A DNA stretch of 20,000 nt from Rhizaria sp. SCN 62-66 (Eukaryota), in contig MEDY01000106.1 in NCBI GenBank assembly GCA_001724265.1, positions 56,801 to 76,800 of the forward strand. Direction: 5' to 3'. This document shows, in pieces, positions 1 through 20,000 of this stretch; the stretch's first letter is position 1, and each line of letters opens with the position of its first letter. The notes below the pieces were generated by a model that was given only the letters and a program-made list of their open reading frames with translations, made no database searches and had not been told where the DNA came from. A program made the translations under genes and the position numbers.

Positions 1-621
1 CGGCGTGGAGCAGCACAGCGACGGCCGTCTCGCTCGCGGCGTCGTACAGCTTGCTCTGCTCGGCCTTCTCGGCGGCCACCTCGACCGCGAGGGCCTTGAG
101 CTTCTCGTCGCCCTCACCGTCGTGCTGCGCCAGTTGAATCAACGATACATGCACAAGAGAAAGTATGAGTAAAGAAAAAGAAAAGCATTAAGATGTAAGA
201 AAGTGAGATCGATGCCTGGGCAGCGTTAGAGCAAGATTGACGTTTAGGAAGGTAGTCTAAGATAGCAAGGTAGGTGTACGTACGCTCTTGACCTCGGCCT
301 GGAACTTGTTCTCTTCCTCGGTGCGGCGCTTCTCGTAAATCTCCTGCACGGCGTTCTCGGCCTCTTGCAGGCGCTTGGAGCGGTCTGTGTGTGTGCGATG
401 AAATCAGCAAAGGGCAAGGGAAAGAGAGGAAAACGTGAGGGATGGTGGGGGAAAGCAAGGGGAGCAACACGAGAAAAGCCGAAGACTGCAGGGGGCTGGT
501 AGGGCGATAAAAGCGGGCATATGGGGGGAAACGTACAGCGCTCCTCGCGGGAAATAATCTCGGCAGCCTCGCGCTCAGCGTTAACAAGCTTGCGGAGAGG
601 GTTGTTGTCGTCCTTGCTCAT
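1..621 (-). CDS. ATP6V1G: V-type H+-ATPase subunit G (Vma10/ATP6V1G family), 3' partial; exons 537-621, 284-384, <1-124
   Basis: Splicing at GTACGT...CAG (intron 385-536) and GTACGT...CAG (intron 125-283) gives a continuous frame: MSKDDNNPLRKLVNAEREAAEIISREERYRSKRLQEAENAVQEIYEKRRTEEENKFQAEVKSHDGEGDEKLKALAVEVAAEKAEQSKLYDAASETAVAVLLHA. This fits the subunit G pattern (LLxAExEAxxIV...RxxRLxxA...E.EF). Confidence 0.88.
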
Positions 622-1555
622 TTCTGTCCAGCCAAGCGGGCGGAAAGGGGGTGCAGCGACGAGGTCGGAACGTGACGGGGCAGTGAGACCAAAAGAAGAG
701 ATTAAGTGAGACTAAATCGTGAAAAACAAGCACACAAAAAGAAAATATGATACAAATCTGCGCAAATAACGTATTCAGAATGAAATGGATCTCAACAGTC
801 CATGAAAGACCCTCGTTTAACGGCAATTTAATCTGCCCACACATCAGCTCTCTTGCTTTGCTCACTTGTCGAGTTGGTTGGTTGGTCGCTGGGATTTTCG
901 CGAACCACTCCAACGGCAGCGTGCGTGCTCTCCTCTGACGACATCTTCACTAAGAGAGTGTTGTGGCGTCTAATGAGCAGTTGTGGAAGTGTAGTTTTGA
1001 TATAATGTTAAACACACTTGTTTCTATTATAGTATAAGTGTTATGTCTCTACTGACGGTTGTGCTACAAAGATAGCGCTTCGATTACCATCGCTTTTCCA
1101 TCCAATCACAGACTGCCACTTAACTCCCTTTTCTCTCGTCACAACACTTCTCAACAACCTTCATTTACGATTTGTTCCTATCATAACGGTGTTTTTGTTT
1201 GCTTACTTTTGTATATCTTGCGCTTACTTCCTCAGCTCCCAATTCTCACGCTCTGTACCCTTTCCCGCTCGACTCTTCCCCTTCAGCCTTCACGACTTAA
1301 GACGCGTCTCTCACTGTTACTCTCGCAACTACAGCGCCCTCCCCTCGTCATTAGTGCCTCAATAAGCACTGGCACAGCATAGTCAGACTTTTTTTAGTAG
1401 CTATAACACGCGGTTTTGGTCCTAAAAACACTCACTCTCACTCCTGGCACTCTCACGACAAAACAGTTAACGACCGGACTGACTCTGCTCTTGGCTTAAC
1501 AGTCGTAAACGCATTGTTGTTGCGAGACTGAGACTGTGACTGAGACCGAGCGACG

Positions 1556-3013
1556 ATGTTCATGCTGCGCCTCATCACGGCCGGGTTCAACCCCTTCGAG
1601 AGCGACACCCCGGGCACGGGCGCCCTCACGGCCCTCGCGTCAGCAGTCTCGGGCTCGGCCGCCGCCACCGCGGGCTCGTACCTGCCCCTCTCCACGAGCG
1701 ACAACAACAACAACAACAACAACAATAACAACAACAGCGATGACGATGACGACGACGGCGGCAACTCTCTCGACAGCACCGGCTCCCCTTTGCGCCCGCA
1801 TCAAAGCAACAGCAAGCAGCAGCAGCAACCGTCAGCGACGACGACGGCGACGCTACTCTCGCCCATCCGCCGTCTCTTCGGCGGCGGCGGCGGCCCTAGT
1901 AATCCCCCGCCTCGTGCCGCGACCACGCTCGCAGACCCCACCTTTGGCCGCTCCTCGTTGAACTACAACAACAACAACAGCAATAGTAGCGGCTCAGGAC
2001 CCATGGGTCCCAGCGGTACCAGTACTGCAATGCACTCTCTTTCGCTAAAGGGACGCATGCCCTTACCCCCCACCAGCACGACCACTTACACGCGTCTAAG
2101 TAGCAGCAACATTCACGGCAACGGCGGCGGCAACACGTGTTTCGCCAAGTGCTGCTCAGACTGCTGCTCAGATTGCTCTTGCTCTTCGTTCGCAGACTGC
2201 CGCGAGTCCACCCGCGCCGCCGCGCTAGCCTGCTGCCAGGCCGTTTCGACGCCGCTCTTCTGCGGCCTGTGTAGCCCTTGCGTCCGTCTTCTCGCCCCGC
2301 CCCGCGTGTCGCTCTCCACCCTCATCCCCCCGCTGCCGCCGGTGACCCGCGAACGATTAGCGTCGCTGCAGGAGCGTTCGGCGGTGCCTTTCTCCCCGGA
2401 CAACGAGGAGCACCTTCGCGAGCTCTACTCCTTTGCAGTCGCCGCGTTCGGGCCCGCGTTTCCCATGGCCGAGCTGCTCAAGTCGCCCCGCTGGACGCAC
2501 ATCGGCTTCCAGGGGCTCAACCCGGCCACCGACTTCCGCGGGGCAGGCGTGTTCGGGCTGCAGAACCTCCACTACTTGGTCGGGCTCGAGCCCCGCATCG
2601 TGCGCCGCATGGCCCTTAAGGAGCACGTGTCGGTTGAGCACTACCTGCCCTTTGCCATCGCGGGGCTCAACCTCACGTTCGCGCTGCTGCAGACGCTTTC
2701 TCTGTCTGTCTCGAGCGCGCCAGAGGACAGGGTGACGGTGAGCCGGACCGAGGCTGCCATCTTTCTCGCCTTCTGCACTCTGCTGCAAAGCGAGCAGTTC
2801 GCGTTCGAGGAGATCTACCGCGCAGCGATGCTCTACCTGGAGGAGCTGTGGGGAGATACCCATGCCAAGTACATCCAGTTCCCGTCGATCATGAAGTCGG
2901 TGCGGGAGAGGGTGGAGCTGACGCTGCTGCGGCGGCCGACCACTGTGGCCGAGTTCGCGAGGATGCTCAACAACGACGACGATGACGACGACGTCAATGG
3001 CGGGATCGTGTGA
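1556..3013 (+). CDS. ELMO/CED-12 domain protein (ELMOD family, Arf/Arl GAP-like), 485 aa, intronless
   Basis: The ELMOD GAP signature WTHIGFQGLNPATDFRGAGVFGLQNL (2492-2569) includes the catalytic Arg. It is followed by YLPFAIAGLNLT and LWGDTHAKYIQFP. The N-terminus is low-complexity (Asn/Asp/Gln-rich) with a Cys cluster. Confidence 0.92.
   Translation: MFMLRLITAGFNPFESDTPGTGALTALASAVSGSAAATAGSYLPLSTSDNNNNNNNNNNNSDDDDDDGGNSLDSTGSPLRPHQSNSKQQQQPSATTTATLLSPIRRLFGGGGGPSNPPPRAATTLADPTFGRSSLNYNNNNSNSSGSGPMGPSGTSTAMHSLSLKGRMPLPPTSTTTYTRLSSSNIHGNGGGNTCFAKCCSDCCSDCSCSSFADCRESTRAAALACCQAVSTPLFCGLCSPCVRLLAPPRVSLSTLIPPLPPVTRERLASLQERSAVPFSPDNEEHLRELYSFAVAAFGPAFPMAELLKSPRWTHIGFQGLNPATDFRGAGVFGLQNLHYLVGLEPRIVRRMALKEHVSVEHYLPFAIAGLNLTFALLQTLSLSVSSAPEDRVTVSRTEAAIFLAFCTLLQSEQFAFEEIYRAAMLYLEELWGDTHAKYIQFPSIMKSVRERVELTLLRRPTTVAEFARMLNNDDDDDDVNGGIV
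1701..1736 (+). repeat. (AAC)n trinucleotide tract encoding poly-Asn in ELMOD
   Basis: Sequence reads acaacaacaacaacaacaacaacaataacaacaaca. Confidence 0.9.
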
Positions 3014-3580: not shown

Positions 3581-3696
3581 CGTAAAGCACAAAGATAGAA
3601 ACGTATCTCTCTGCAAATAACAAAGAGAAGTCACATTGACAGTCTTACGAGCCAGCAGTCCGATTCAGCGAAAAAGAGAATCTGCACAGAATGAAT

Positions 3697-3712
3697 GTAA
3701 GTACCCCCTTAG
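3697..3712 (+). repeat. Dispersed 16-bp element GTAAGTACCCCCTTAG (copy 1)
   Basis: Exact reverse-complement copies lie at 9121-9136 and 16395-16410. Confidence 0.85.
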
Positions 3713-3726
3713 ACGGCTGGCTGCAC

Positions 3727-5195
3727 TCACCGCGCCTCTGTGCCCATCGAGGCCCTGCGGTGCGCGGCCGGGAGCGTGACCGCCATCGCATCTCCCCCGG
3801 CGTCCGGCCCCCCAGCCTCGTGGCCGGCCTCGGCGTCAGCGCCGTTACTGCCGCCGCCGCCGTTGTTATGATCGTCAGTCTCACCGTGACCGTGGTCGTG
3901 ATCAGATGCGGTAGCAGCAGCGGCAGCGCCACTGCTCTCAGCAGCGCTATTGCCGCCACCATTGGCGGCGTTGGCGTTGCCGCCGTTGTTGTTGCTGTTG
4001 CTGCTGCTTGAGGCTGCGGTGGCGGCTCGGGCTGGCGAAGCGGTGCGATTGGGGCTGTTGCCGCGCTTGGGGGAGCCCGTGGCGGCGAGCGGCTGCGGCT
4101 TCTCGGGCTTCGGCATCAGCCCCGTCTTGATCTTAGCCAGATCACTCATCTTGGACACAGCAGGTGTCGCCAGCTTCGCGTAGTAAGTCGGGTCCACGGG
4201 GCGGGAGCCGTGCGGCCTAACTTCCTCCGCGGGCTTCTTGCGCTCGCGGCCCTTGGAGAGGCGGTTGATCCAGCTGTCGTGCGGAATCGTGTATTCGCGG
4301 TCAACCGGCGGGCGCGGCGGCGGCGGGGGCTTGGCTAAACAGGGAGGGGCGAAAGGGTGCGACAACGCCAAACAAGATAAGAAAATGAATAGTTAGCATT
4401 GTGGATATAAAACGGAGGATATGATGTCATTATATCATGATAATAATTTGCTCAAGTATACATTATTCATAAATAGATCGTATCATTAGGTTTTGTCGTG
4501 AATTGTTACGATACTACCGAGATATATGCGAAATAAGCTGTTAAATAGGGGACGTACGGCGGCGGTGGGGCGGCACCTCCATGCTCTTGACGAGCCATTC
4601 CTGCGTCTCCTTACTGATGGGGGGCATCGTGGCCGAGGACTGGTACACGCGCGTAGTGTGGTCCTCCTGTGCGCGTGAAAAGAGCAAATGCGTAGAGAAA
4701 GCAAAGCAAAGGGAGGTGAGTCGTGTTTCAGAAGGATTGAGTTAAGGTCATTCTTTGATGATGCGAGCTTAGCGGATTGAAATAAGCGATAATAGATGTA
4801 AAACCAGCACAAAACAGTAGAACTGTGTTACTCATGCGATATATCGTCCGGAATTACGTGGTTTAAAGACATACCTCGGTGAACTTCTTGCGGGGCTCCT
4901 TGGGGACTTTTCCAGGGGGCCGGCACAGACTGGCCACCGTCGGGCTGTCGTGGAACTCCTTAACGGTCTCGCGCAGGCTGCTGAGGTGGTCGTAGGACTT
5001 TCTGTTGGGGCAATACAGCCGCATTAAGAAATAGACAGTGGTAGGGACGAGTATGAGTGAGACAGAGAGTCAAAGATGTAGGCGTTAATTCTGACTAGTG
5101 CTGCGATCGTGAGTAAGCGAACGAGGGAAGGAAACGTACGGGAGATGGCGCGGATCGTGTTTGGGGTACTCGCGGTACTCGTGGAGGTCGGACAT
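3727..5195 (-). CDS. Hypothetical basic/Pro-rich protein, ~299 aa; exons 5140-5195, 4875-5001, 4558-4666, 3727-4334 (an alternative 3' end at 3645 is possible)
   Basis: Three phase-compatible introns (GTACGT..CAG 5002-5139, GTATGT..CAG 4667-4874, GTACGT..TAG 4335-4557) join GC-rich exons into 900 nt: MSDLHEYREYPKHDPRHLPKSYDHLSSLRETVKEFHDSPTVASLCRPPGKVPKEPRKKFTEEDHTTRVYQSSATMPPISKETQEWLVKSMEVPPHRRPKPPPPPRPP... Confidence 0.8.
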
Positions 5196-5994
5196 GGTGA
5201 CGCACACGCACGCAGACACAGTCTGTTTGTTCTGTGGCGCAGACGAAGGGCGGTGCGAGGGATGGGAAGGACCAAGAGGAACGAGAGGGGAAAGGACTTC
5301 GCGTAGAGAAGAAATACAACGCGGATTTACAGGGTTAGACGCATGATAGAAGATGTGGTAAAAGAGAAATAGATAAAACACTATTCAAATATTTCCTCAG
5401 TAGAACAGCAGAAACAGTTATCAGACATGTGTGACGATATTCAGGCTGCAAGTTAGCCGTCTCCCGACCGTTTCACACTGCTACACGCCTCGGACCTGCG
5501 ACTGTGGGCAGCCGATATCATCGTTACGCAGCCTCGTGACAAAGCATAACGACGTGAAAATTTGCGATTTCATTACAACTCTTTGACAAAGTAGACTTCA
5601 AGTTGTCTCAAATACTGTGGTCAAATTATTATTGCGGTTTGAAGATGTCTTGGCAATGTAATCGCCACTAAGACTGGTGCTTGCGCAGCGATGCGTTTGC
5701 CCTCGGAAACTGATTATTACAAGCCTGACAAGCGTCTTGGCGGTGACAGAGACAGCTACGCTCACCAGAGCTCAACAAGTGCAGAGAGATGTGTAGCTCT
5801 GCCGTGTCACTATGACTGGCAACGACGGAGATGGCGACTGTGACTGAGACTGCGGTTGACTCAGTGTTGATTTTGACGTTAGACTGGAGGGAATATGTTT
5901 CAGTGCTGTGCAAGCAAGAGCAAAAAGAAATGGACGGAAGGTCCCGAACACGATGCAGACGCGCTGGGCGTCGTGGAGCGTCGCGGAGGCATGC

Positions 5995-6005
5995 AAAAAA
6001 AAAAA
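5995..6005 (-). terminator. RNA polymerase III terminator (T11) of the tRNA gene
   Basis: A run of 11 A on the + strand gives a T11 run on the - strand, 4 nt downstream of the tRNA discriminator. Confidence 0.8.
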
Positions 6006-6009
6006 GAAG

Positions 6010-6090
6010 TGTGCTAGACGGGGTTCGAACCCGCGCGTCCGGAGACACTACGGCCTTAACGTAGCACATTAACCACTTTGTTACCAGCAC
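6010..6090 (-). tRNA. tRNA-Leu(AAG), type II with long variable arm, no intron
   Basis: The reverse complement folds as a cloverleaf: acceptor GTGCTGG/CTAGCAC + A73; D arm ACA-AAGTGGTTAA-TGT; anticodon arm CTACG-TTAAGGC-CGTAG (anticodon AAG, G37); variable arm TGTCTCCGGACGC; T arm GCGGG-TTCGAAC-CCCGT. Confidence 0.95.
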
Positions 6091-6598
6091 AGATAAGAAT
6101 TTGCGATTTGAACGCGATTTTCTTGACTAACGGCCTGAATCTATGGTATAGATACTTACTTTAAATATCCAACACTTTTAAAAGAGCTCTCACGTGTATG
6201 TAAGACATTTTGCATTCATTCTGTCGAAATGTTGTACGAAGGTTGCATTTGAAGGCTTATATTCAACTAGAGTAAAATAATATTAAAAATGGTCTCAGTT
6301 GGGATTGTTCAAGCTGATCTGTGTAGTTTGTGAGCCTTCACGGTTAAGAGGTGCAAAGTAGCGAGGACAGAACAAATACTAGTAGAAGCTGTATTCCGAT
6401 CATATTAGAGATAGGTATTGAAGGGTCTTTAAAAGCAATATATAATATTATTAATGAATTGATAATGCAGATACACATTTTAACTAATGTAACTTCTAAA
6501 CAATCCAAGCTTCACAACAGCTTCGTTTTCGCAGGAGGCAGTTATGGCGACTGCTACTCTCAAACATACAGTACAACATAAACAGCTTAACTGACGCT

Positions 6599-9500
6599 TT
6601 AGTTGTTGTTGCTATTCTTGTTTTCCCAGTTCTCGGCCAAAGCAAGCAACTTGCTCTCCAGCACACCACCACCCACAACATTGGCACTGGCACTCTTGTC
6701 ACTTTGCACATCATTGCCGTCGCTGCCATCGCACTTCACGGCATTACTCTGTTGCGACTGCGACTGTAACTGTTGCTGCTGCTTCAGCAGCGCACGTGCA
6801 GCGGTGACGGCCTTGGCCCTCTCCACCCGCTCCTTCTTCTCCTGATTGCTCACCCAGATCTTTCGCAGCTCGGCCGCAAAGTTGGCGAAAATGGCGAAGA
6901 AGCGGCACCAGTCCTGGGCAAAGGGCGGAATCGGCACCACGGGCGGGTACTTAGACGCGTCTAAGGGCGGCACTTCGCCCAAGTACTGTAGCACGGTCAG
7001 CACGGCCTCGTCGGCGGCTTGATATAAAACACTCAGTTCCTCCAGTGTCCGCGACAGGGACTGTGCGATGGTGCTGACGCGACTCTTCTCAGCATCTTCA
7101 GCCTCAGCGGGGTTGGGAGGAGCACTTCCATCTTCGCTCGCACTTGCAGTCGCACTCGCGTTACTGGTAGTGTTGTTGTTGTTTTTAAGTTTAGCCGCTA
7201 ACGTGAAGGCCGACCGTGCCGCGAGTTCAATAGTCGTGATGGCAGCCTTCGTCACACTCATATCGCCCTGAGCAGCCGCCAAACAGGGCTCAAGCTCCTC
7301 CGGCAGCGACATCAACAGCGTCACACCGTTACTGCTATTGCTATTAGCCGCGGCGGCTTGCTTTTGAAAGAAGGCCGCCTGCTCCTCGGCGATGCGTGCA
7401 ACGACTGTGAGCAGAGAGTCGCTGTTGTTCGAGTGCGTACTCGTGACTGACGAAGTACTGACACGCTGGTGAGTGCTATTATTATTGCTATTAGCAGTCG
7501 TGGAGCCACTGACACTGGCATCAGCCGCGCTGTTGTTCACAACGACAACATCAGTACTAGTGCCAGCTGTGCCGTCACAAGTATCGTCTTGCGATGACGT
7601 CGACGACGTCGTCGTCATCGTTACAGTGGTGGTCGTTGTTGTCGTCGTGATGATCGTGCTCGTGGAGGTACTTAGAGTGCGGATGGTACTTAGCCTGGGC
7701 AGCAGATCGACCGAGAAGCCGAGCGCGCGCCCCTTCTTTGTGCCCTCGTTCATGCTGTTGCCGATGCGCAGCAGCAGCGCCAGCGCGGCCCGCAGCGCCT
7801 GCGAGCCCGTCACGGCCTTGGCCGCCGCGACAACGGCCGCGAGCTGCGCCCGCGCGAGCGAAGCCAGCTGCCGGTGACCGAGCCACGCGCGCAGCACGTC
7901 GCAGTGTTGCGCCAGCAGAGGGGTGGTGGTGAAGAGGCGGATCACGCGGTCGGCGGGGGTAAGTACCTCGGGGGGACCGGTGTAAGTGGTGAAGACGAGC
8001 CGCTCGGTCGGCGTCGGGAGGAAGAGGGAGCAGCGGTCGAGAAGGTCGGAGGTAAGTACCGAGGCGTCTAAGTGGAGGATAGCCTGGGTAAGGGTCTCCG
8101 GGGTAAGGGGCGCGAAGCCCCTGAGCGTGATGCTGATGGCGTGTGCGCGACGAGAGTCGAGCAGCGTCACACTCGCGGTCGCCGCATTAGCAGCGCTCGC
8201 AGTAGGATTACCCTTGTCAGCGTTGTTCTGAGTAGCAGAGTCGATATCGGCGTTGGGGGCAGGGGGACTATACGTGAAAAGGCCTTCTAAGCAGCTGATG
8301 TTGATGCCGAGGCCAGCCAGCTCCGGAATCTCGCCGATCAACGTCAACTCAGCACTAGCCCCCGCCCCCGCCTCGTTACTATGGGCGGGCACAGCAGCGA
8401 CAACGCCAGTCGCAGCAGCGTTAGAACCAGCGCTTGAGGCAATGGCGGTGGCAGCCCCCGCCTCGTTACTATGGGCGGAGGCGAGAAGCGCAGAGATGCG
8501 GCGGCGACTCTCTAAGCTCGCGATGTCGTGCCACACAGTAGTTCCGGAAAAATCCGACGGGAAATAGGGTTTTTCGAGTGCAGAGACCGCGATTTGACTG
8601 CTCAGGCTGTTCTTGTTGCTGTCGTCGTCAATATCATTGTTGTCGCTGTCGTTGTCACTGTTGTTGGGGTCAATGTCGTCGTTGGCGTTGGCGTTGTTGT
8701 TCTTCTTGAGCAAAGTAAGGGCTTTCTGTGACAGCTCACTGACAGCTCCACTTGCACCGTCTAAGGGGGCGGCGTTCCCGTTAGCAGCAGTGTCGGCAGA
8801 AGCAGCGGCACTCAGAAGCGTGGGCCGTGTAAGTAGGTTGTCTAAGGGTGTCTCCTGCCAGAAGACGCGGCGCACGTTGCCGCCGACGCTGCTGTGGGCC
8901 TTGGCAGCCGCGGCAGAGGCGGCGGCGGCGACAGCGGCCGGGGGCGGCGGCGGGGCGATGATCACGCTCATTCTTACACTCGCACTAGCATTCGCACTCG
9001 TAGTTGCAGTCGTAGCCGCAGCCGGAGGTGCAGCAGTTGCATCGATGACAGCAGTGTGAGCGTCACTGCTGCTGCTGCTGCTGTTACTCTCAGTGCTAAC
9101 TTGAGGGGGCATGATGAGCACTAAGGGGGTACTTACACTCACGCTCTCGCTCTCCTCAACGACCACAACGTTATCGCTATTGTCAGAGCTACTTACATCT
9201 GAGGATGATGCAACAGCAGCAGCAGCAACAGCAGCAGCAGCAGAACTTGCACTCGGCAGCTGCTGAGCAGCAGAGGTACTTAGACTCGTGGCTCCGGTAC
9301 TTACACTGTACGCCAGCGTGCGCAGCGAAGCGGGCCACAGACCGAGACTCACCATTTTCTTTTCAAGTTTGCTCAGACCAGGCACGATACCCTTGGCGAG
9401 TAAGTCAAGCCGCGCCATGGCCTCCTCCTCGCGTCTCTTGGCGTTGCCGCTGCCGCTTAGGTTAAGCCGCTTCTTATTGCTGTGCTTCTTACGTCGGTGC

Positions 9501-11940
9501 TGGCGGCCACCGGGGCTGGCGGTGACCACAGAGTCATCGTTGTCATCAAACTCACTGTCGCTGCCGCTGTTGCCATCCTTGTCGCTCGTGTCAAAGAGGC
9601 CCATCGGCGGCGGCGGCGGCGGCACTGAGCCACTCTTGGCCTCAGTCTCAGAGTCAGAGTCAAAGAGGCCTGCGGGCGCCGGCGGCGGCCCCCCCTCAGC
9701 CGCAGCCGCAGTCGCGATATCGGTGTCAGCGACGGACTCTGCGTCGGCGTCGGCGTCCGAGTCGTCAAACAGACCGGCGGGCGCGGTGGGGATGGGGACG
9801 AGGGCGAACTCCCCCGCCTCTTTACTATGGAGCGACAGCACCGCCGCGGCGTCGCCGTCAACAGCCCCGGCACCGACGACTGTGACACCAGATCCAACGC
9901 CAGTGTTGTTGTTGTTGTTGTTGCTGCCGGTGCCAGTAGCATCACCAGAGCCAGAGCCAGAGCCGGAATCGAGGCCAGTATTGTTGTTACTGTTGTCATT
10001 GCTGTTGTTGATGTAGTTGCCGCCTTCAGAGATTGTGATATGCGAGATGACAGACGAGGAAGCACTGACACCGCGGGGACGGCCCTTAGACCGCGACTTG
10101 GAGCCCTTAGATTTGGAACCGGTCTTCTTGCCGTCGGGCAAGTTAGCGGTACTTACATCGAAGACGTCGTCCTCTTCTTCTTCACCGTCGCCGTCCGAGC
10201 CACTTACATCGCCCTCAGCACCCTTAGACCGGGACTTCGACTTCGTCTTGTTGTTGTTACTGCCCTGATGAGGCATGGCCGCTGCCGCTGTCGTATTATT
10301 GGCCCAGTCAAAGTCGCTGCCGCTGTAGTAACTGCTGTCATTACCACTGTTGCTGTTGTTCAGGTACTCAGAGTCCGAGCCAGAGTCAGAATCGGGGCCA
10401 GAAAGCGGTTCCGAAAAATCGCCAAAATCATTATCGTCGGCGTACCAGCCATCCCAGGCCTCGGCGCCGGAAGTTTGGCCGCTTGCTCCAGAGTGGGGGT
10501 GGACTGAGAACAGATCAAACAAGCTATTGCTGCCGCTGCCGTTGGAGTTGGTGCCGTGGGCGGCATTGTTCGCAATGTCGGCGGCGGCCTTGGCCCGGGC
10601 CCGCATTTGGTAGCTATTCGCACCGCCACCGCCGCCGCTACTACTGTTGTTGTTGTTGTTGTTACTGTTGTTGTTGTTGTGGCTGTTATTGAGCGTCTCG
10701 AGCAGTTGGAAGAGCTGCTCGCGAACGGCCGGCGGGGTCGTGGCGGGCAGCGACAGAATCGTCTGGAAGACCTGCTCGCTTGCGACAATGCTCGCGTTGC
10801 TGTTGTTGCCATTGCCATTACCGCGGTTGCTCGAGTTTGCGTTCGTGTTCGCGGTGTTAGAAGTTTGGCCGCTGCCATGTTGTTGCTGGTAAGTGAAGCC
10901 GCCAATTATAGACGCCAACGCAGAGTCTAGTGAGTCCTCGCCTGCTCCGGTGTAAGCGCCACTTAGTTGCCCCATGTAAGTACCCTGGGCGTTGCCGCCT
11001 CCGCCGACGCCGCCGTTGTTGCTGTAAGTGTTGTTGTTGTAGCCGGTGAGCCAGAGTAATGGGTCACTTAGATCCTGTTGGTGCAGCGCCTGCGCGGCGT
11101 TGCCGTGTCCGTCTAAGTAGTACTCTTTACTGAGACCGAGGATGTTGCTCACACCTGAAGCAGCGTTCGTCTTACCGTTGGGACCATTCCCATTAGCGTT
11201 GCAGCCATGACCGTTATAGTTTGTGTTGCTGTTGTTGATAAGACGGTGTGCGTGGGCGGTCACAGCCTTGAGCGCCAGCAGCAACGGAGCGGCAGCAGCA
11301 GCACTCGCACTAGAGGTCGCAGCGTTGGTATTCCCGCCCACATCGCCAATGCCATTGTCGTTGCCACGGATAGCGTTCGCGGTGCTCGAGCCAGCATGCG
11401 TCAGCGCAGCCAGCCCCTGCCCCTGCGCCTGCATTGTCTGCAGCGGCGGCGGCGGCCGCGCCAACACCACAGTCATCAGCAGCGCGACGCCTCGCGTGAG
11501 GGCCCCCGCAACAACGAACACGGCCTGCAGCCGCGCGCTGACGCGTTTGTGCCGCGACCACAGGCGGTCCGCCCGGTCGCTCGCTGCGGATACGGCTGCC
11601 ACGGCAGCGGTCAGCCGCGCCTGCGCCTGCTGCAGCGCCGCCGCAGAGGGAGCCGCGGCGGCCGCGGCGGCAGCGGCGGCGCGCGCGGCGGCGACGTTGG
11701 CCTGTGCGTGAGACACCGCCGCGCTCTGAAGGATGTAAGTGGGCGCGGCGTCTAAGGGGGCGCCCAGCGCCAGAGGGTCTCGGGGGTTTGGCGCTAAGGG
11801 GGGTGCGGTGCTGACCTTGACGGCGAACACGTCGCGCTTGTCGTCGTAGCTCACGTCTAAGTCCTCCTTGGCCAGGGTACTTCCACTCGGGTAAGAACCA
11901 GCGGCAACGCCACTACCGCTAGAGCCACCGTTCGCACCTA

Positions 11941-11974
<34 letters not shown>

Positions 11975-14841
11975 GAGGTTGTTGGCGGCGGTCACGGCCG
12001 CGGACGGTGACAGCCCTCCCGTCGCGGCCGCCGCGGCCGCCGCGGCCGCCATCTCGATCGCCAGCACGGCCGCTGCCTCGAGCTTGGCGGCCTGTGCGCC
12101 GGCCTCGGCGGCCACGGCGGCTGAGGCCTCGGCCTCGGCCTCCGTGAGGGCCTTGGCCTCTGCGTCGGCCTCGGCGCGCGCCAGCAGCATCGTGTTCAGC
12201 GTCGCCAGGGGCTCGGTGAGGCGCTTTTGACCGGCGAGGAGCGCGGTGCAGGCCTTGGCGACGGAGTTGAGGTCTGAGTGAAGAAGCAATTACAGTGTGT
12301 AAGAGTGTAAGAGTGACAATGAACAGTGAGAAAAGTGGATGAATAAGACAGTTGTGAGTGCAAAAGAATTAATATTAATAGAAAATAAATAATTTGCAAA
12401 TGAGAGACAAGTTCGGGATTTCATAGGATTACATCGATTTGTGATAGTTTGCGTTGTGTTGCTGTTGTTAGCTAAGTACCTTCAGTCCACGAGTCCAGTT
12501 GCCGCAGCAGTGACAGCGCCAGTTGAGACAGGGCCTGGCGGGCGTCGTCGCACACAGCGTCAGCAACGTCAGTATTCGCATTCGCATTCGCACTCGTGAC
12601 CGCGTTCGAGCTGTTGTCGCTTCCCACAGCGACTATAGTGCCACCGGCGGCGCCATTGGCATCAGCAACAACGACAGCGTTGGTGTTAGTGCTGTGTGAG
12701 GGAGTACTGAGAGCGTCTAAGGGGGCGCTTACACCGGGCTTGATGGGCGACATCGAGCAGAGCTGAGTGAAAGAGATATCATTCTCATTAGTCGCAGTCC
12801 CAGCAGCAGCCACAGTGTTGTTGCAATCGTTAGCAGTTGTCTCAGGCTCGGGCTCAGCATTAGCGTTGTTGTTGTTGTTGTTGCTGTTGTTGTTTTCGAG
12901 AGCGAAAGTCGTAAAGGACACATCAGCCTCAGGCAAAACAGGCAAACCGTCAGCCGCGGCCGCGTTTGCACTTAGATTAGCATCAGTACTAGCAGTGCTG
13001 TTGTTAGTGACTGTGGGACGGCGCCGGCGGCTTAACTTGTTGGTGTCGCCCTCGACAGGGCCTAACTTCAGAACACTGTCACTCGCACTCTCATTAACAG
13101 CGGCGGCAGCGTTAGAGGTGTTTTCAGTCGAAGCAGGTAAGCTCGAGTTGCTGCTGCTGTTGGTGTTAGCGTTGGAAAGAGACGGAGGGAACGACAGGGC
13201 ACTGCTGTCAGAAGTTAGGCCGCCGTCGGAAGTCAAGCCGCCCTTGCCAACGGCACTCGCACTGACACTTAGACTCGCTGAGCTGGAGCTGACATCGCTA
13301 GAGGTCGTAACAACACCAGCAGTCGCAGTCTCCTTATCACTTGCGGTCCTCGCGGCATTAGCGTTGTTGCTGTTGTTGTTGTTGTTGTGATTGTTGATGC
13401 CAAGGTTGTCTGTCAAGAGCGGCGCCAATGCGAGTGTGAGCGCTTTGTCAAGGCTATCATGCACGGCTGAGAAGCGCGCGATCGCCTCCTCGGCGGTACT
13501 TAGACTGACTATGGGGGCAATTACACCGTCTAAGTACTGTCCATCGTTCGTAGCAGCAGCAGTAGTCGTTGTGGTGGTTGTGGTGGTTGTTGTTGTCGTG
13601 GTCGTTGTGGTAGTTGTCAACGAATTGTTGCTGTTGTTGTTACTGTTCGCATTAGCTTTAGTGTTGCTGCTGCTGTTGTTGTTGCGGAGAGGGGAGAAAG
13701 CCGAGGGCATTGACCGTGCCGCCTTAAGCTGGGCCTGCGTCTTGCTCCAGATCGATAAGCCGCCGTCGTCGGAAGCTAAGCCGCCATCCGCGTCGGCCAC
13801 ATCATCGAAGTTGTGACTGCTGCTGTCGCCAGAGTGAAACTCCGCGTCAGAGCCTGTGCTTGCGTCGGAGCCGTCGTCCTCCGTCGTCGTCTCGGTCGAC
13901 AGCAGAAACGCTTCGCCGGCCTCTGCCAGCGCGGTGCCCATGGTGGGCACGTCGACGAGAACGCCAGCGTAGGCCCTCAGCTGGCGCTTGAGGGAGGCGA
14001 GGGAGCGCAGCCAGAGGGCGATCTGTGCGCACAAACAGAGAATTGACGAGGTATATGCACGAGTGAGAATTGTCTTTATATCTACTATACATAATTAGTT
14101 AATCCATATTTTACCGAACATTTGCACAGATTGGAGTGCATATCGTACCTTCTCGAGCCGTTTGAGCGCGTCCTCGTCCTCGGTCGGCACGGGCGCGACA
14201 CCGGGACTCTGAGGCTGCTGCTGCTGCTGTTGCCGGTTGGCAAAGCCCGCGGTAGACTTGGTGTTGCTGCTGCGGGGGTGGCGACGGGGACTGCGAAAGC
14301 CCTTGGTAGGCGTCACAAATCCCCCCTGCTGCTGCAACTGCTGCTGCTGGTTGTTGTTGTTGACGTCGGCGTCGTTAGGGTTAGCTTTGTTTTTGTTGAG
14401 GTGGGAACGAATGCGCTCGGCTTTCCGCGAGGCCGCCGCCCGCAGGCGCTGGAACACCTTGGGCAGCGACGGGCCCCTGAGGCCGGTGCTGCCGGTGTTG
14501 CCAGGGCCGTTGAGGGTGTCAGAGCCAAAGCCTCCGTAGCTGTTGTTGTTGCGCGCAAAGCCACTTCCATTCTGCTGCTGCTGCTGCTGTTGCTGTTGCT
14601 GTGAGGAGTAGGACACATTGCGGGACCGCTGCAGACTAGCGAGCGATGCGTTGTGCTGATCACAGGCATTCGCATTGTTGTTGTTGCTGTTGTTGTTGGA
14701 GAAGAGAGAGCCCTGGCGACTGCGGCCGCTGTTGCTGACAACTGACGAGTTGGATTTGCCGCCGCCGCTATTGTTGTTGTTGCCGACAGAGGCGGCAGAA
14801 TCCGTGACTGCGCGGATTAGCGAGGAGATAAACGAGCTCAT
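6599..14841 (-). CDS. Large formin (short FH1 + FH2) with probable N-terminal BAR domain, ~2636 aa; exons 14149-14841, 12480-14022, 6599-12273
   Basis: Three ORFs join in phase through introns 14023-14148 (GTACGA..CAG; LEK|IALW) and 12274-12479 (GTACTT..CAG; TE-D-LNS), totalling 7911 nt. FH2 motifs: VRRVFW, TTVW, LEGLF, VTLLDSRRAHAISITLR, LRIGNSMNEGTKKGRALGFSVDLLPRLSTIRT, FFAIFANFAAEL. Poly-Pro stretches lie upstream of the FH2. Confidence 0.88.
6820..8880 (-). other. FH2 domain-coding region, interrupted by long low-complexity inserts
   Basis: The lasso Trp residues (RRVFW, TTVW), the conserved actin-binding Ile (AISITL) and the GNxMN post motif are all recognisable in order. Confidence 0.85.
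8364..8478. repeat. 25-bp direct repeat (8364-8388, 8454-8478) encoding AHSNEAGA twice
   Basis: gcccccgcctcgttactatgggcgg occurs twice, 90 bp apart. A 19/20 match also lies at 9811-9830. Confidence 0.85.
9121..9136 (-). repeat. Dispersed 16-bp element (copy 2, inside formin CDS)
   Basis: CTAAGGGGGTACTTAC on the + strand, encoding VSTPL. Confidence 0.85.
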
Positions 14842-15414
14842 GCTACGGGCGTGCGCTCACGGGCACGGGAGAGGCACTGCAGTGAGTGGGGAGCTCCGGA
14901 GAGCGTGCAGAGAGGGGAAGAGTCGCACTCGATGGGGGGATGACGAGGGTGCGAGAAGCGAGCGAAAGAACGGCTTTGGGGAGAATAAAAACAAACGAAG
15001 TGAGAATGATAATAAAGCCATTAGGCTGTCAAAACACTATATATTTATGATATAACAGTAATATTTACAATGACGGTGACTGTATCTCCGTGAAGACATT
15101 TTTCGTTAGGCCGATTTTAAAAATTTGTTGCCCCGCAAATTCCGCCCGTTGAGCTTTGGCTCCCAGTCACAATAGTTGGAAGTCAAGAAAACACGCAACA
15201 TTCTCGGCGATGCCTGCGTATTATTGCAATTAAACAGATGTGTTGTATTTAAAAACTCTTCTAAACGTACTTAAATAACTTTTTGTTTGAGATAATAGCA
15301 ATATATCGCTCAAATCTTAGTTCGCGCAATCAGCATACGAAAGCGTGGCTTGCGTCTGAAGAACAAAACGGTTGTTTAAGCTTACAACTCACTTATTCGC
15401 ACTAAGACAGCGAC

Positions 15415-17517
15415 TTACTGGTCGGTGGTGCCCTTCGCGCCCCACGCCAGCGTCACCTCATTCGCCACACTCTGCTCCAAACCAACCTGCCTGACCGGCA
15501 GCAGCACCCGTTGACTCGCCAAGCAGCGACGCTTAACTTGCTGCTGTTGTTGTTCGATATTGTTATCAACCGTGGCACTAACATCATCATCAGCAGCAGC
15601 AGTCGCGGTGGCGCTTTCCTCGCCATTAGCCTGCGCTTGTTTGTCGTAGATCTCTCTCGCCTGACCGCAGATGTCGTCCTGGTACTGTAAGTATCCCCTG
15701 CGGAGGGACGTAAGTGCCGCCGCCTCGGCCGCCGCGGTCGTCGCGCCCTGTTGCCGCAGCAGCGTCAGGAATGCCACGTCAGCAAAGATGACTGCGGGGG
15801 GGACGAACCATGTGCCCGCCACACTCACATTACCACCTGTCGCAGAAGCATTTTCACTGCAATCACTCGTAGCAGCGGCGGCGTGCGCAGCCTTCTCGGC
15901 CCGCCGGAGCGGCTCCAGCGCCCACGCTGGCGCCGCCTGCCGCAGCTCCCTGCCCACCACAAACACGGCCTGCGCGGCGCCAGGGCCCGTCGCCGCGTCC
16001 GCTGCGGCCGCCGCGGGGACCAGGGCGAGGCGTGCGAAAAGGCGGTAGCAGAGGTAGATGAGGGAGACGTGGCACGGGAGGGCGACGGAGAAGGCAAAGG
16101 AGCTGAGGAACATGCCGCCCTGGCGGAGGGTACTTAGAGCCGAGATGAGGGTACTTAAAGCGATGCGTGCGTCGGCCTCCACCCAAGAGGGGTACTTAGC
16201 CACGACTAAGGGGGTCTCTTGCTGTTGCTGCTGCTTCTGCTGCTGAGAGTACTGGTTGAGCCAAGAATGCGCCATATTTGTCTCGGCATCAGGGGACAGT
16301 AGCGTATCAAGCACCGACAACACACCTCCACAGCGGGCGAGAAGCAGCGCACCGGCTAAGCGGCGCGGCGCGGCCTGACTTTCGTCCACGACCACTAAGG
16401 GGGTACTTACATCGGCGCCGCTAATGTTAGACTCACCTGAGTTGCTGCTGTTGCCGTCCTCTAAGGGGGTACTTAGCGTGGGTAAGGGTGGCAGATGGCT
16501 AAGTGCCGCCGTGACCAGTGCCGGAGTCGGCGTCGGCAGCAGCAGTAAGCTAGGCCGCGAGTAAGCACTGCTCGGAATCGCCAACACATCGCCGATTGCG
16601 CTATTACTACTGCTAGTATTCGTTGTTGCATTATCAGTCAAATTAGTGGTGTTGCTATTAGCGTTCGCGGTGGCTTGACGGATCTTTTCGCACTCGGCGA
16701 CGGTGTAGACAACACTGTTTGCGCCGCCGAGGGGCCCTGCGCCTGCGGTCGCGACGGCGAGGACCACGTCGACGTCATTGGGGCGGAAGGCCTTGGTCGA
16801 CTCGGCGCTGACCAGCGGCGCAAAGGGGGGGAAGTCCCACTTACACGCCCCTCCGCTTCCACTTACATTGCCAGCAACAGAGGCAGACGCAGACGCAGCC
16901 GCAGATGCCCCAGTTCCAGCAGCAGCAGCAGCAACAGCAGTGTTGTTGTTGTTGCTGAGATCTGTGAGAGTGATGTTCTTCATTTGACCGAGACGCGTGG
17001 TTGTTGCCATGCGTTCTAGGCGCCACACGGGGAGTGGAATGGTGCTTAGACGGGACATCCACGACGGAGCACTTACACTTACACTCTTGCTTGTGCTGGT
17101 GCTGCTGTTGTTGCTGCTGTTGTTGTTGTTGTTGTTAGTGATGTAAGGGGCACTGAGTGCGACGCCCCTTACAATCGCGCGCTTTTGCCCCTTGAGCCTC
17201 TGATGGATGATGTACTCGAGTGCGCCGCCCGTATACCCTCCGAACCTATTTACAGTGATCTGCGGGGAGGAAGACGATGATGACGGGGGGGTACTTACAC
17301 CGCCGCTGCCGTGTAAGGGGGGAGTGACCGTGAGCAGCTGCCTGGGCGCCGGCGTGATATCGATGACCGTGAGGAACATGTCACGGTCTCGCTGACTCAT
17401 GTCCACGCAGGGACGGAAGATCGGCACGCCGCCGTCGAAGGAGGTACTTAGACCAGCTCCAGCAGAAGAAGTGGGTAAGGGTGCGAACTCCCACTTCGTC
17501 ACATCATCAGCAGTTGC

Positions 17518-17550
<33 letters not shown>

Positions 17551-19308
17551 CGCGTTGTGTTGCGGTGCTTTGTGCAGCGCAATGGGCACGTTGCGGTGCG
17601 TGAACGCACGCGTCGTCTTGCTCTCCACGGCCGCGAGCGCCAGCGCAGTCATGTCGACGAAGTGGCTCGCGGTCGGCGCCAGCGCGAGCAGCGGCGCCAG
17701 AGTCAGCGGGTGACCGTGGGCAGGCTCCGCAGAGGAACCGTGAGCAGCGGCGTTTTGAGAGAGGATGGAGTCGGCTGGGGGCGCCATGAGAGACAGCAAG
17801 GCCGCGCCCGTGCTACTTACACTGGGACAGGTACTTACATTGGGGGCGCTTACACGCGAGCGCGCGACGATGGAGTGTAAGGGCGCGGTGTTGGCAATGC
17901 CCGATAGACCGAGGAAGGGGGACGAAGTACAGAGCGCGTGCGAGAGGGAAAGTAAGGCCGCGTCCGTGGGGGTGAGAAGTGTAGCTTCATCGGTACTTAC
18001 ATCCACCACAGTGGAAGTGTAAGGGGTTGGCAGCAGCGTTGAGTGAGTCGCAGAGGTGACAGCCTGATCCCACTTAGACTGAGCCTGCTGTTGCGTGTCA
18101 GCAGCAGCGTCAGCAGCAGCAGCACCCTTAGACGCGGCAGCCAAACGCGTGTAAGTAGGCGCTTGGGTCAAGCCGCTCGCAGGCAAGTTGTACAGCGCAA
18201 CTGCAGCGGCCTCGGCCTTGGCCAACCGCTGCTGCATGTCCGCAGCACTGTTGTCGGTCTCATCACTGCTTGACTCTTGTTGTTGTTGCTGCTGTTGTTG
18301 CAGTAGCAGCGAAGGGGTGAGTAAAGAAGCTGCAAATGCGACGCGCTGCTCCCAAATCACACTTAGATCGGGGTACTTACACTCTTCCTGAGCGTTGTCA
18401 CCGGCGATAACGCTTGTGTCGTTGCTTGAGCTGACGTTGGCGTCGTTGTTGTTGTTATCGTTGTTGTTGTCGCTGTTGCTGTTAGCATAAATGAACTGTA
18501 GGATCTTGACGTGAGTGGGATCTAAGGGGAACCCCTTCATCAGCTCTAAGTGGCCACTCACCTCTAGGTACCTCTTGTCCTCACCAGCATCAGCGTTCGC
18601 GCTATTCGCGCTGTGACTGTCCTTCTCGTTTTCGTTGTTGTCGTCGTTGTTTTGGCGAGGAAGGACATCAGTCGCCAGAGTCGAGCTGACTGGACACTGA
18701 TAGAACACAACTCCAGAGCTACCACCAGCAGTAGTGGCGTGACTTTGATTCGCCTGCAACGCCCCCGCTGTGGCAATCGCCGCTGCGGCGAGACTGATCG
18801 GCGCATCGGGGGCCTCGCCGTTGTAGGTCGCACTCGGAGCTGCGCCGTTGGCAGTCAATACAGCCATTGCGTCGGCCGCTGCGATGATGCTCTGCTTAAC
18901 AACGCTGCTGCTGCTGCTGCTGTTGCTGCTGTTTTTACCAGCATTAACCACAGCAAGAGCCATACTGGTAGCATCTGCGTTCGCGTCATTCGAGTTGTTG
19001 TTGGAGTTTACGTTGTTGTTGGAGCTCCTGAGAGCAGGATGGTAGGGCAGGGGCAGGAGGGCGGCGTCGATCGCAGCTTCCGTCGCGGCTCGCCGTGCGT
19101 ACGTGTGCGCGTCCGTAACGACACCGTGGTCGATCGAGAACTCGGGCACGGGGAGTTCGAGCGAGGGCAGCGGTGCGCTGGCGGTGAAGCCAAGGGTGAG
19201 CGGCAGAGAGCGGGTGTGGCGGGTGTAGCTGGGAGCGGAGGCCGGGCCGAAGAGGTCGAGGCTGGCGGCGTCGGCGCGGGCCGTAATCGAGCCCGGTTTG
19301 GACGCCAT
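15415..19308 (-). CDS. Divergent CMTR1/FtsJ(RrmJ)-like cap 2'-O-methyltransferase homologue, 1297 aa, probably catalytically inactive
   Basis: A single long ORF. Ordered motifs resemble CMTR1: FVDMTALALAAVE, GGYTGGALEYII, RGVALS, FAPLVS, DVDVVLA, and ALSTLRQGGMFLSSF...VSLIYLCYRLFARLALV...VFVVGREL (compare recalled CMTR1 ALxxxRxGGxFxCKxFD...GLVYLLYCCFERVCLFKP...ERYVVCKGL). Confidence 0.68.
16395..16476 (-). repeat. Two dispersed 16-bp elements (exact 16395-16410; one-mismatch 16461-16476) inside the CMTR1-like CDS
   Basis: CTAAGGGGGTACTTAC and CTAAGGGGGTACTTAG. Confidence 0.85.
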
Positions 19309-19855
19309 AGCTGAGATAGATAGCCGCTAAGCAGGACTAAGTTGTGGTGAAACTGCAGGACGGGTCGCGAAGGTTTAAGTGAAGAGTAGTCTGGATTAAG
19401 GAAGGTTGGAGTGACGAGTGTGTGAGTTGATGTGAGGCATAATTGAAGAGAGTATAGGGGGATAAAATAGGCAATTCTAAAGAAACTAACAGAAAAAAGA
19501 ACGAGATACTAACGCAAAAATAGGATAGTTCAAAAGATGTGCTATTGACGTCAAGGATGAACTGATGTAAAGATTTTCAGATAGCCTAGCAAGACGCAAC
19601 CGCGAGCGCAGCTTAGTCGAAAGCCACCGTCACGAGACATTAAAGAGAACATAGTGTGGTACAGATGTGTGGGATTTTGGGTCGATGAAATGAGTTTATT
19701 TCCGTGAGGTATATATCTTTTAGGTTTTTGCTATTTTACGTCTCCTCCTACTCATCCTTCACACGCATATCCCTCTCAAAGCGCCTATTGACACGAGATG
19801 AGAGAATGGGTGTTACTGACTCGTAGTGTGTTTGCGGATGATAATGATTGACTTC

Positions 19856-20000
19856 TTAATCGAGAGCAACCTTCTTGCCGTTGCCATTGGCACGGTTCTT
19901 ACGGTTGAGGATGGACTGGCGGGAGCCGTTCATGTAGAGGTCGGTGACGACGACGTTGGAGGTGTGGATGGGGACCTGGACAGAGGTGCCGTTGTTCTTG
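19856..20000 (-). CDS. RPL26: 60S ribosomal protein L26 (uL24), C-terminal portion, 5' partial
   Basis: The - strand reads KNNGTSVQVPIHTSNVVVTDLYMNGSRQSILNRKNRANGNGKKVALD*, matching the eukaryotic L26 pattern KxNGxxVxVxIHPSxVVIxxLxxxxxRxxILxRK. Codon bias is strong. The segment is too short for the ORF track. Confidence 0.9.
   Translation of the reverse strand, partial: KNNGTSVQVPIHTSNVVVTDLYMNGSRQSILNRKNRANGNGKKVALD

Follow-up and report, generated by a model that had tools for sequence, protein, structure and literature searches.

A hyper-abundant DNA word in the long genes of Rhizaria sp. SCN 62-66 contig MEDY01000106.1

The window analysed here is a 20,000-nucleotide (nt) stretch from Rhizaria sp. 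SCN 62-66 (GenBank assembly GCA_001724265.1, contig MEDY01000106.1, positions 56,801 to 76,800, forward strand), and it carries many copies of a short word, STAAGTACC (S = G or C) with its reverse complement GGTACTTAS, most of them written into three long open reading frames (ORFs). The window is eukaryotic nuclear DNA, as the sequence-only reading of this stretch had supposed, with two spliced GT..AG introns and with FH2 and ELMO domains among its encoded proteins. V-ATPase subunit G exons occupy one end (1-620) and the end of an RPL26 gene the other (19856-19999); between them lie an ELMO-domain ORF, a giant formin-like ORF (hereafter the FH2 ORF), an ORF of 540 amino acids (aa) and a second giant ORF. 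The positions of these genes and of the individual word copies are collected in Table 1.

An exact count gives 22 copies of the 9-mer and 23 of its 8-mer core (STAAGTAC), at the places listed by the sequence-only reading, the additional 8-mer copy being that at 13530-13537. In 200 dinucleotide-preserving shuffles of the window the 9-mer averaged 0.15 copies with a maximum of 2, corresponding to an excess of about 150-fold, and 0.71 copies of the 8-mer are expected, consistent with an earlier rough estimate of fewer than one per 20 kb. The excess survives a codon-based null in which synonymous codons were shuffled 1000 times per ORF with protein and gene codon usage kept. Under this null, sense copies of STAAGTACC number 7 in the FH2 ORF against a mean of 0.38 and 9 in the second giant ORF against 0.64, while antisense copies number 3 in the FH2 ORF against 0.07 (about 40-fold), and in each case the observed value was reached in 0 of 1000 shuffles. 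The codon null is conservative because the [VL]ST peptides and the GTA, CTA and AGT codons contributed by the word are retained in the shuffles; a null preserving codon pairs would be circular, since most STA-AGT pairs come from the word itself. Related words were also claimed to be abundant, and the word does belong to a wider family, TSTAAG/CTTASA, which is enriched 6-fold overall. On both strands of the three long ORFs, TGTAAG/CTTACA occurs 31 times (5.1 expected from synonymous-codon shuffles) and TCTAAG/CTTAGA 30 times (4.8 expected), each about 6-fold above expectation, and 102 of the 341 TA dinucleotides fall within TAAG or CTTA, compared with 53.5 of 412 in the shuffles.

The actual unit is a 10-mer, T-S-TAAGTACC, as the base preceding the 22 copies is T in 16 and G in 6. 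The word opens with G in 12 window copies and with C in 10; TTAAGTACC was found twice and ATAAGTACC not at all in the window. In a second metagenome, described below, the split between G and C at this position is 18:16, and in both samples A or T almost never occur there. The word is sharply defined, in that alongside the 23 copies (17 preceded by T, 6 by G) there is at most one single-mismatch variant for each of the six TAAGTA positions. Four window copies extend to the 16-mer STAAGTACCCCCTTAG, often followed by AC. Taking these together with the 16-mers of the second metagenome (38 in all), T stands immediately to the left in 31 and AC immediately to the right in 20. The composite form is a near-palindromic 20-mer, GT-S-TAAG-TACCCC-CTTAG-AC, with 7-nt inverted arms (GTCTAAG/CTTAGAC) flanking TACCCC. 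The 10-mer TSTAAGTACC differs from its own reverse complement, and the spacer of 6 nt enclosed by the arms of the 20-mer is asymmetric. Half-words are also found alone, each with its own part of the spacer, as TSTAAGTACC and CCCCTTAGAC. The hexamers cluster: neighbours lie no more than 25 nt apart in 18 cases where 7.4 would be expected, and full words form three pairs at a spacing of 18-21 nt. Comparison of window and second-metagenome 16-mers revealed no shared flanks or longer repeat unit beyond about 2 nt per side, no flank repeats or target-site duplications were seen at the copies, and a repeat search of the window returned only CAA/CAG/GCN triplet families.

Table 1. Genes, word copies and related features of the window (orientation of copies is relative to the ORF in which they lie)
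Position	Strand	Feature	Setting and reading
125-283	-	V-ATPase G intron, 159 nt	GT..AG, starts GTACGT; confirmed by RNA contig
385-536	-	V-ATPase G intron, 152 nt	GT..AG, starts GTACGT; confirmed by RNA contig; contains CTTAGAC and CTTACA
1544-3013		ELMO-domain ORF	E=2.8e-33; zero word copies
3697..3712	+	16-mer GTAAGTACCCCCTTAG, then AC	9-mer at 3697-3705; outside long ORFs; 15-30 nt beyond the stop of ORF 3727-4392 (-), antisense to that ORF
6009-6090	-	tRNA-Leu(AAG) gene	AT-richer spacer downstream of FH2 ORF
6599..12289	-	Giant ORF, 1896 aa, formin-like (FH2 ORF)	Pfam FH2 at aa 1354-1544, E=2.2e-31; 7 sense and 3 antisense copies
6946..6954	-	CTAAGTACC	FH2 ORF, sense, S-K-Y-P
6946..6965	-	CTTAGACGCGT directly before CTAAGTACC	Palindrome or everted junction CTTAGACGCGTCTAAG at 6950-6965
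7667..7675	-	CTAAGTACC	FH2 ORF, sense, L-S-T (aa 1539), edge of FH2 domain
7685..7693	-	CTAAGTACC	FH2 ORF, sense, L-S-T (aa 1533), on conserved L-S of LPKLS
7959..7967	+	GTAAGTACC	FH2 ORF, antisense, V-L-T (EVLTPA), conserved L column
8052..8060	+	GTAAGTACC	FH2 ORF, antisense, V-L-T (SVLTSD)
9121..9136	-	16-mer GTAAGTACCCCCTTAG	9-mer at 9128-9136; sense, V-S-T-P-L-V
9275..9283	-	CTAAGTACC	Sense, L-S-T (aa 1003); 21 nt after copy 9296..9304
9296..9304	-	GTAAGTACC	Sense, V-S-T (aa 996)
10148..10156	-	GTAAGTACC	Sense, V-S-T (aa 712)
10976..10984	+	GTAAGTACC	FH2 ORF, antisense, G-T-Y
12472..14094	-	ORF, 540 aa	1 sense copy, 1 antisense copy with TAG stop, antisense 8-mer
12472..12480	+	CTAAGTACC	Antisense; complement GGTACTTAG provides TAG stop of ORF 12472-14094
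13495..13503	-	CTAAGTACC	Sense, L-S-T (aa 198 of ORF 12472-14094)
13497-13506 and 13528-13537		Perfect 10-bp inverted repeat (GTACTTAGAC at 13497-13506, + strand)	21 nt between arms
13528..13537	+	GTCTAAGTAC	8-mer copy, ninth base T; antisense, Y-L-D
15415..19326	-	Second giant ORF, 1303 aa	No Pfam family; 9 sense copies and one TTAAGTACC variant
16129..16137	-	CTAAGTACC	Sense, L-S-T (aa 1064)
16150..16158	-	TTAAGTACC variant	Sense, L-S-T (aa 1057), 21 nt before copy at 16137
16191..16199	-	CTAAGTACC	Sense, A-K-Y-P
16395..16410	-	16-mer GTAAGTACCCCCTTAG	Sense, V-S-T-P-L-V; gapless in polyA-RNA contig
16461..16476	-	16-mer CTAAGTACCCCCTTAG	Sense, L-S-T-P-L-E; in the same polyA-RNA contig, 16262-16623
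17290..17298	-	GTAAGTACC	Sense, V-S-T (aa 677)
17443..17451	-	CTAAGTACC	Sense, L-S-T (aa 626)
17830..17838	-	GTAAGTACC	Sense, V-S-T (aa 497)
17992..18000	-	GTAAGTACC	Sense, V-S-T (aa 443)
18372..18380	-	GTAAGTACC	Sense, C-K-Y-P

Relative to the ORFs, 17 window copies are sense, 4 are antisense and 1 lies outside. The sense copies read V/L-S-T in 14 cases (VST 7, LST 7) and x-K-Y-P in 3, the third sense frame being one that would give a TAA stop; the antisense copies read G-T-Y once and x-V-L-T twice, and one provides a TAG stop codon. The peptides named for the word by the sequence-only reading are thus correct, with the exception of Y-L-D, which belongs to the 8-mer. All stop-free frames on both strands are used far above chance.

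The protein consequences of the word indicate the level at which it is maintained. The three long ORFs total 3739 aa and contain 22 [VL]ST tripeptides, about 4-fold more than the 5.3 of residue shuffles. The word accounts for 14 of these and the remaining 8 are near the chance level, so that the entire excess is word-coded; likewise, all three KYP (0.1 expected) are word-coded. Within the word the rare codons GTA, CTA and AGT are fixed and the preceding synonymous base is fixed as T (16 of 22), whereas the three [VL]ST of the ELMO gene use ordinary codons. DNA leads and protein follows: the word has raised the frequency of [VL]ST. The claim that pressure acts on the DNA rather than on the protein is therefore upheld by the rare codons and the T before the word, by the antisense, second-frame and outside-ORF copies, and by two antisense copies whose conserved V-L-T in the FH2 domain is owed to codon choice alone. 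Together, these findings require a pressure at the nucleotide level by which one specific word is both generated and retained.

The FH2 domain allows the origin of individual copies to be examined, using phmmer alignments to the solved formins 4eah and 9ya0 and a MAFFT alignment with 20 of 150 listed homologues (the top matches by E-value, minus P0141, which matches a different part of the query, plus a few lower ones). All four copies within the domain, out of the 22 in the window, lie in gapless alignment blocks and were therefore written by base substitution rather than inserted; the other 18 are in regions without an alignable homologue. Two of the four encode conserved V-L-T or L-S residues. 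At the antisense copy at 8052, VLT is present in 3 of the 20 homologues and ILT in 2 more, and since homologues share VLT at this position the copy was written by codon choice alone. The FH2 domain is broken by a low-complexity insert of about 90 aa rich in T, S and N (7400-7660, - strand), which starts right after the two LST words.

Further copies were sought by scanning 241 million metagenome records for the 16-mer, which returned 95 stretches. One other metagenome holds 34 of the 16-mers on 32 eukaryotic contigs, giving a total sample of the 20-kb window and about 75 kb of seeded second-metagenome loci. These contigs resemble the window in having 60% G+C and CAA/CAG tracts and encode Thg1, Dus, PRMT5, TBCC and Gpi16 domains. 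Their flanks are mutually unrelated and no blastn overlap with the window was found; they may come from the window's own species or from a relative of it. The 30 16-mers that were mapped comprise 18 reading [VL]STPL, 4 reading KYPL and 8 antisense (5 KGVL, 3 LRGYL), with 7 of the 30 in ORFs of 201 aa or less. A further 13 unseeded 9-mers occur in the same loci (8 sense, 5 antisense), corresponding to 0.24 per kb of ORF. The Dus protein of this second organism is about 50% identical to those of plants, oomycetes and amoebozoans, and the word precedes the aligned part; the TBCC alignment around the word is too weak to separate insertion from substitution, and a PDB search with the ORF bearing the PRMT5 TIM-barrel match returned nothing. 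One contig, L082, has a local hot zone at 1-614, with seven TSTAAG/CTTASA hexamers in an S/P-rich ORF, the tandem GTAAGTGTAAGT included. Outside that metagenome the 16-mers are single copies in sequence of unrelated composition and were taken as chance, a possible exception being L050 (1436 nt, from a different data set), which has 60% G+C, reads cgtCTAAGTACCCCCTTAGacgcttagac and may be a further relative.

Our preferred explanation, which we advance tentatively, is that this is a lineage-specific genomic word acting at the nucleotide level and read as double-stranded DNA within gene bodies by a sequence-specific factor. Stated more broadly, and with somewhat less than an even chance of being right, a protist lineage keeps a word resembling bacterial DNA uptake sequences (DUS) or the cyanobacterial highly iterated palindrome (HIP1) in its nuclear genes by means of a sequence-specific system, either a repair or gene-conversion drive or a gene-body binding factor. 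Such a system would be strong enough to override codon choice in the conserved FH2 domain and to account for the roughly 4-fold rise in [VL]ST. The core of the word is the hexamer TSTAAG, the 10-mer being the main form and the near-palindromic 20-mer the composite one. Copies would arise in place through base substitution, by synonymous change at sites whose encoded residues are already compatible with the word (V-L-T and L-S of the FH2 domain) and by amino-acid change where the protein is tolerant (V/L-S-T, K-Y-P). They would then be kept sharper than free decay would leave them, whether by selection for factor binding or by a mismatch-repair or gene-conversion bias (molecular drive), with selection on the encoded peptide filtering which strands and frames survive. 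Duplex recognition is favoured because both orientations are enriched, the hexamer is about strand-symmetric (TSTAAG occurs 13 and 15 times on the two strands of the FH2 ORF), the degenerate position is G/C and almost never A/T, and inverted as well as direct pairs occur at short spacing. We infer that the near-equal use of G and C at the variable position fits duplex recognition better than a single-stranded RNA reading. Depletion of one-mismatch precursors, the trace expected of a ratchet of the very-short-patch (VSP) type, gave no clear signal, the expected counts being too small. Repeat-induced-point-mutation (RIP)-like or CpA deamination was considered as the origin of the word and rejected by reasoning, given that CAG/CAA tracts are intact in the same genes.

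Several observations weigh against the duplex explanation, and they also qualify the statement that the word is written regardless of strand and frame: the use of both strands and of all stop-free frames stands, but the copies are not evenly distributed among them. Pooling the window with the unseeded second-metagenome copies, 25 are sense and 9 antisense, and among window sense copies the V/L-S-T frame predominates. Copies are also concentrated in ORFs of at least 200 aa (20 in and 2 out in the window, 13 in and 0 out for unseeded copies of the second metagenome), such that 33 of 35 pooled copies fall in ORFs covering 71% of the DNA (P=0.0008). This preference is adverse because a uniform DNA-level drive should fill non-coding DNA equally well or better. 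Density differs strongly between genes as well: the three long ORFs, 11.2 kb in total, hold 21 copies, and the shorter genes, about 3.4 kb, hold none (P=0.0017). No 9-mer was found in the V-ATPase G exons or the RPL26 end, as the sequence-only reading had noted, nor in the ELMO ORF, and the word encodes 20 of 34 peptide-compatible sites in the three long ORFs but 0 of 3 in the three shorter ones. Creation of the word through amino-acid change is seen for the sense frames, and the principal peptide class of antisense copies, VL[TSR], shows no enrichment (7 against 4.9). Occupancy of compatible sites is 17 of 25 in sense and 3 of 9 in antisense orientation, a difference that is not significant (P=0.12); this weakens an RNA-level explanation but is no proof of strand symmetry.

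These asymmetries are what would be expected of the main rival, namely an mRNA cis-element. An RNA-binding protein, or a U1-like small nuclear ribonucleoprotein acting without splicing, would bind it, and long transcripts poor in introns would thereby be marked for export, for elongation or against early termination. The conserved 5' end of U1 small nuclear RNA can base-pair with GUAAGUA, and in telescripting U1 binds 5' splice-site-like sites within exons. As with such sites, the G form of the word contains GTAAGTA, the copies are biased to the sense strand, lie in long ORFs in 33 of 35 cases and are concentrated in the longest genes, and the word is retained in RNA: in the polyA-selected run X7, a contig follows the DNA without gaps from 16262 to 16623, through two unspliced 16-mers. 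The V-ATPase G intron does appear spliced in this run, although the run's contigs are of low depth and DNA carry-over is possible; most of the listed contig joints fall in triplet repeats, and the view of splicing at words is limited to the joints listed. However, we consider an mRNA element unlikely, given the 40-fold excess of antisense copies in the FH2 ORF, the 5 of 13 unseeded second-metagenome copies that are antisense, and the strand symmetry of the hexamer core. The C form, which lacks the splice-donor GU, is as common as the G form, the organism's two RNA-supported introns start with GTACGT and not GTAAGT, and pairing with U1 leaves the preceding T and the trailing ACC unexplained. 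A stem-loop at the RNA level was rejected, as minimum free energies lie between -2.6 and -4.3 kcal/mol, z-scores are at best -1.3, and covariation between the arms is absent, the left arm carrying G or C while the right arm has G in 38 of 38 16-mers.

Footprints or mini-insertions of a mobile element would be excision scars or translated inserts. A mobile-element footprint was among the causes proposed by the sequence-only reading, and is disfavoured for the four copies that can be tested. The near-palindromic 20-mer with its 7-nt arms is reminiscent of such elements, as are the half-words carrying separate parts of the spacer, the everted junction at 6950-6965 and the occupation of both strands and all open frames. 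Rickettsia palindromic elements, which are translated selfish inserts of 100-150 nt tolerated inside ORFs, are a known case of a nucleotide-level repeat in coding sequence, but the present word is 10-20 nt long and written by substitution. All four testable FH2 copies occupy gapless columns, two of them on conserved residues, target-site duplications are lacking and the flanks are unrelated beyond 2 nt, a 16-nt unit would disrupt the reading frame, and no longer element bearing these ends was seen in 95 kb. An origin of this kind is thus improbable.

Still less probable is protein-level selection for a peptide motif, [VL]-S-T-P-L-[DA], for example as a proline-directed phosphorylation site. 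The predominance of V/L-S-T, in 14 of 17 window sense copies and 18 of 30 mapped second-metagenome 16-mers, would be in line with such a motif, as would the location of second-metagenome copies mostly outside Pfam domains (the word falls inside the matched stretch in 1 of 9 ORFs with a family match). Against it, the whole [VL]ST excess is word-coded, the 8 other occurrences being near chance and those of the ELMO gene using ordinary codons, and the rare codons and the synonymous T before the word are fixed. Moreover, KYP, GTY and VLT are further readings of this DNA word, one copy of it supplies a stop codon, and it is also present outside ORFs.

That the 16-mer GTAAGTACCCCCTTAG, or the segments running from GTAAGTACC to CCCTTAG, are tiny or in-frame exonic introns is very improbable, although the G form starts with GTAAGT and ends with TTAG, and introns of 15-16 nt exist in Stentor. 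The polyA-RNA contig is colinear across two 16-mers, half of the copies start with CT, and genuine introns here are 152-159 nt long and start with GTACGT; in addition, 16 nt and all frame-0 GTAAG-to-CCCTTAG segments equal 1 modulo 3, with CCCTTAG always at codon position 3, and ORFs of up to 1896 aa as well as the FH2 homology stay in frame through the words. An assembly, adapter or sequencing artefact can be practically dismissed, as Logan contigs (not raw reads) from runs X3 and X4 of two further studies cover 14 of the 22 copies with zero differing letters (for example at 7310-8300, 10693-11680, 16076-16869 and 17559-18894), copies fall in frame within a known domain, at conserved residues, and 34 copies recur in the second metagenome. 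The mobile footprint, peptide motif, tiny introns, RNA hairpin and artefact are each contradicted by a direct test.

Other features of the window concern the setting of the word. Around the 16-mer at 3697, ORFs on opposite strands overlap (3640-4011, + strand; 3727-4392, - strand), and the + strand ORF would start M-N-V-S-T-P-L-D on the 16-mer. Two tandem CTTACA hexamers (cactCTTACActCTTACAcac) stand just upstream of the FH2 ORF start (12290-12330, - strand), and the second giant ORF ends in a stop reading TAAG, with CTTAGTG and TGTAAGC in its 3' flank. A polyA-RNA contig (6581-6840) stops 18 nt beyond the FH2 stop codon, immediately following TTAAGCTG. A very short 3' untranslated region is one possible reason, although a contig end is itself no proof. 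The long ORFs (6599-19326) are rich in CAA/CAG/GCN tracts that give poly-N, poly-Q, poly-T and poly-A runs, Dictyostelium-like tracts in a genome of about 60% G+C. The tRNA gene is the only match in an Rfam scan, was called tRNA-Leu(AAG) by ARAGORN and is unconnected to the word. Relatives of the encoded proteins are distant: a full HMMER search with FH2 found distant formins only (best E-value 3.3e-29, 26-39% identity), a word-index protein search with the FH2 part gave no match, and the nearest ELMO relative is 55% identical, a protein atlas search with ELMO returning generic ELMO clusters only.

The likeness to HIP1 or to DNA-uptake sequences suggested by the sequence-only reading holds for abundance, choice of frames and raised tripeptides, but the present word is non-palindromic and enriched in ORFs, and its host is not a competent bacterium. 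Uptake signal sequences (USS) and DUS, of Pasteurellaceae and Neisseriaceae, are like it in being words of 9-12 nt found about once per kb on both strands, in having settled within genes in frames giving tolerable tripeptides, and in having few degenerate copies. Uptake sequences are reported to about double the frequency of their tripeptides and to prefer poorly conserved residues (PMC2817400), compared with about 4-fold for [VL]ST and copies also on conserved residues in the window. They are, however, depleted from coding DNA and form inverted pairs in intergenic regions, unlike the 33 of 35 copies in long ORFs reported here; they lack the single degenerate G/C position of the present word, and they belong to naturally competent bacteria with a word-preferring receptor rather than to a eukaryote. 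We know of no DNA-uptake machinery in eukaryotic nuclear genomes.

HIP1 (GCGATCGC) resembles the present word in lying within ORFs in several frames. It is reported to be 15- to 300-fold over-represented in cyanobacteria, a range that includes the approximately 150-fold found here; as for the present word, a peptide or RNA-hairpin role is not supported, the mechanism is unsolved and a role in chromosome structure has been proposed (PMC5861425). HIP1 is a perfect palindrome tied to known methyltransferases, in contrast to the strand-biased, non-palindromic word of the window. The skewed octamers of bacteria, Chi and the FtsK-orienting polar sequences (KOPS), are short, oriented in-gene words that are partly carried by codon choice and act at the DNA level through their readers RecBCD and FtsK; these are oriented with replication, whereas here orientation follows the ORF.

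No report of the present word or of a eukaryotic analogue was found in full-text literature searches. The hyper-abundant words of bacteria, including uptake sequences, HIP1 and Chi, each point to dedicated DNA-handling machinery. The 16-mer serves as a practical marker, since it singled out, among 241 million metagenome records, 32 contigs belonging to a single related organism. If the explanation favoured here is true, the word would signify an undescribed sequence-specific system in a eukaryote, possibly one of repair, recombination, chromatin or transcript handling, and would represent a clean case of DNA-level pressure remodelling a eukaryotic proteome.

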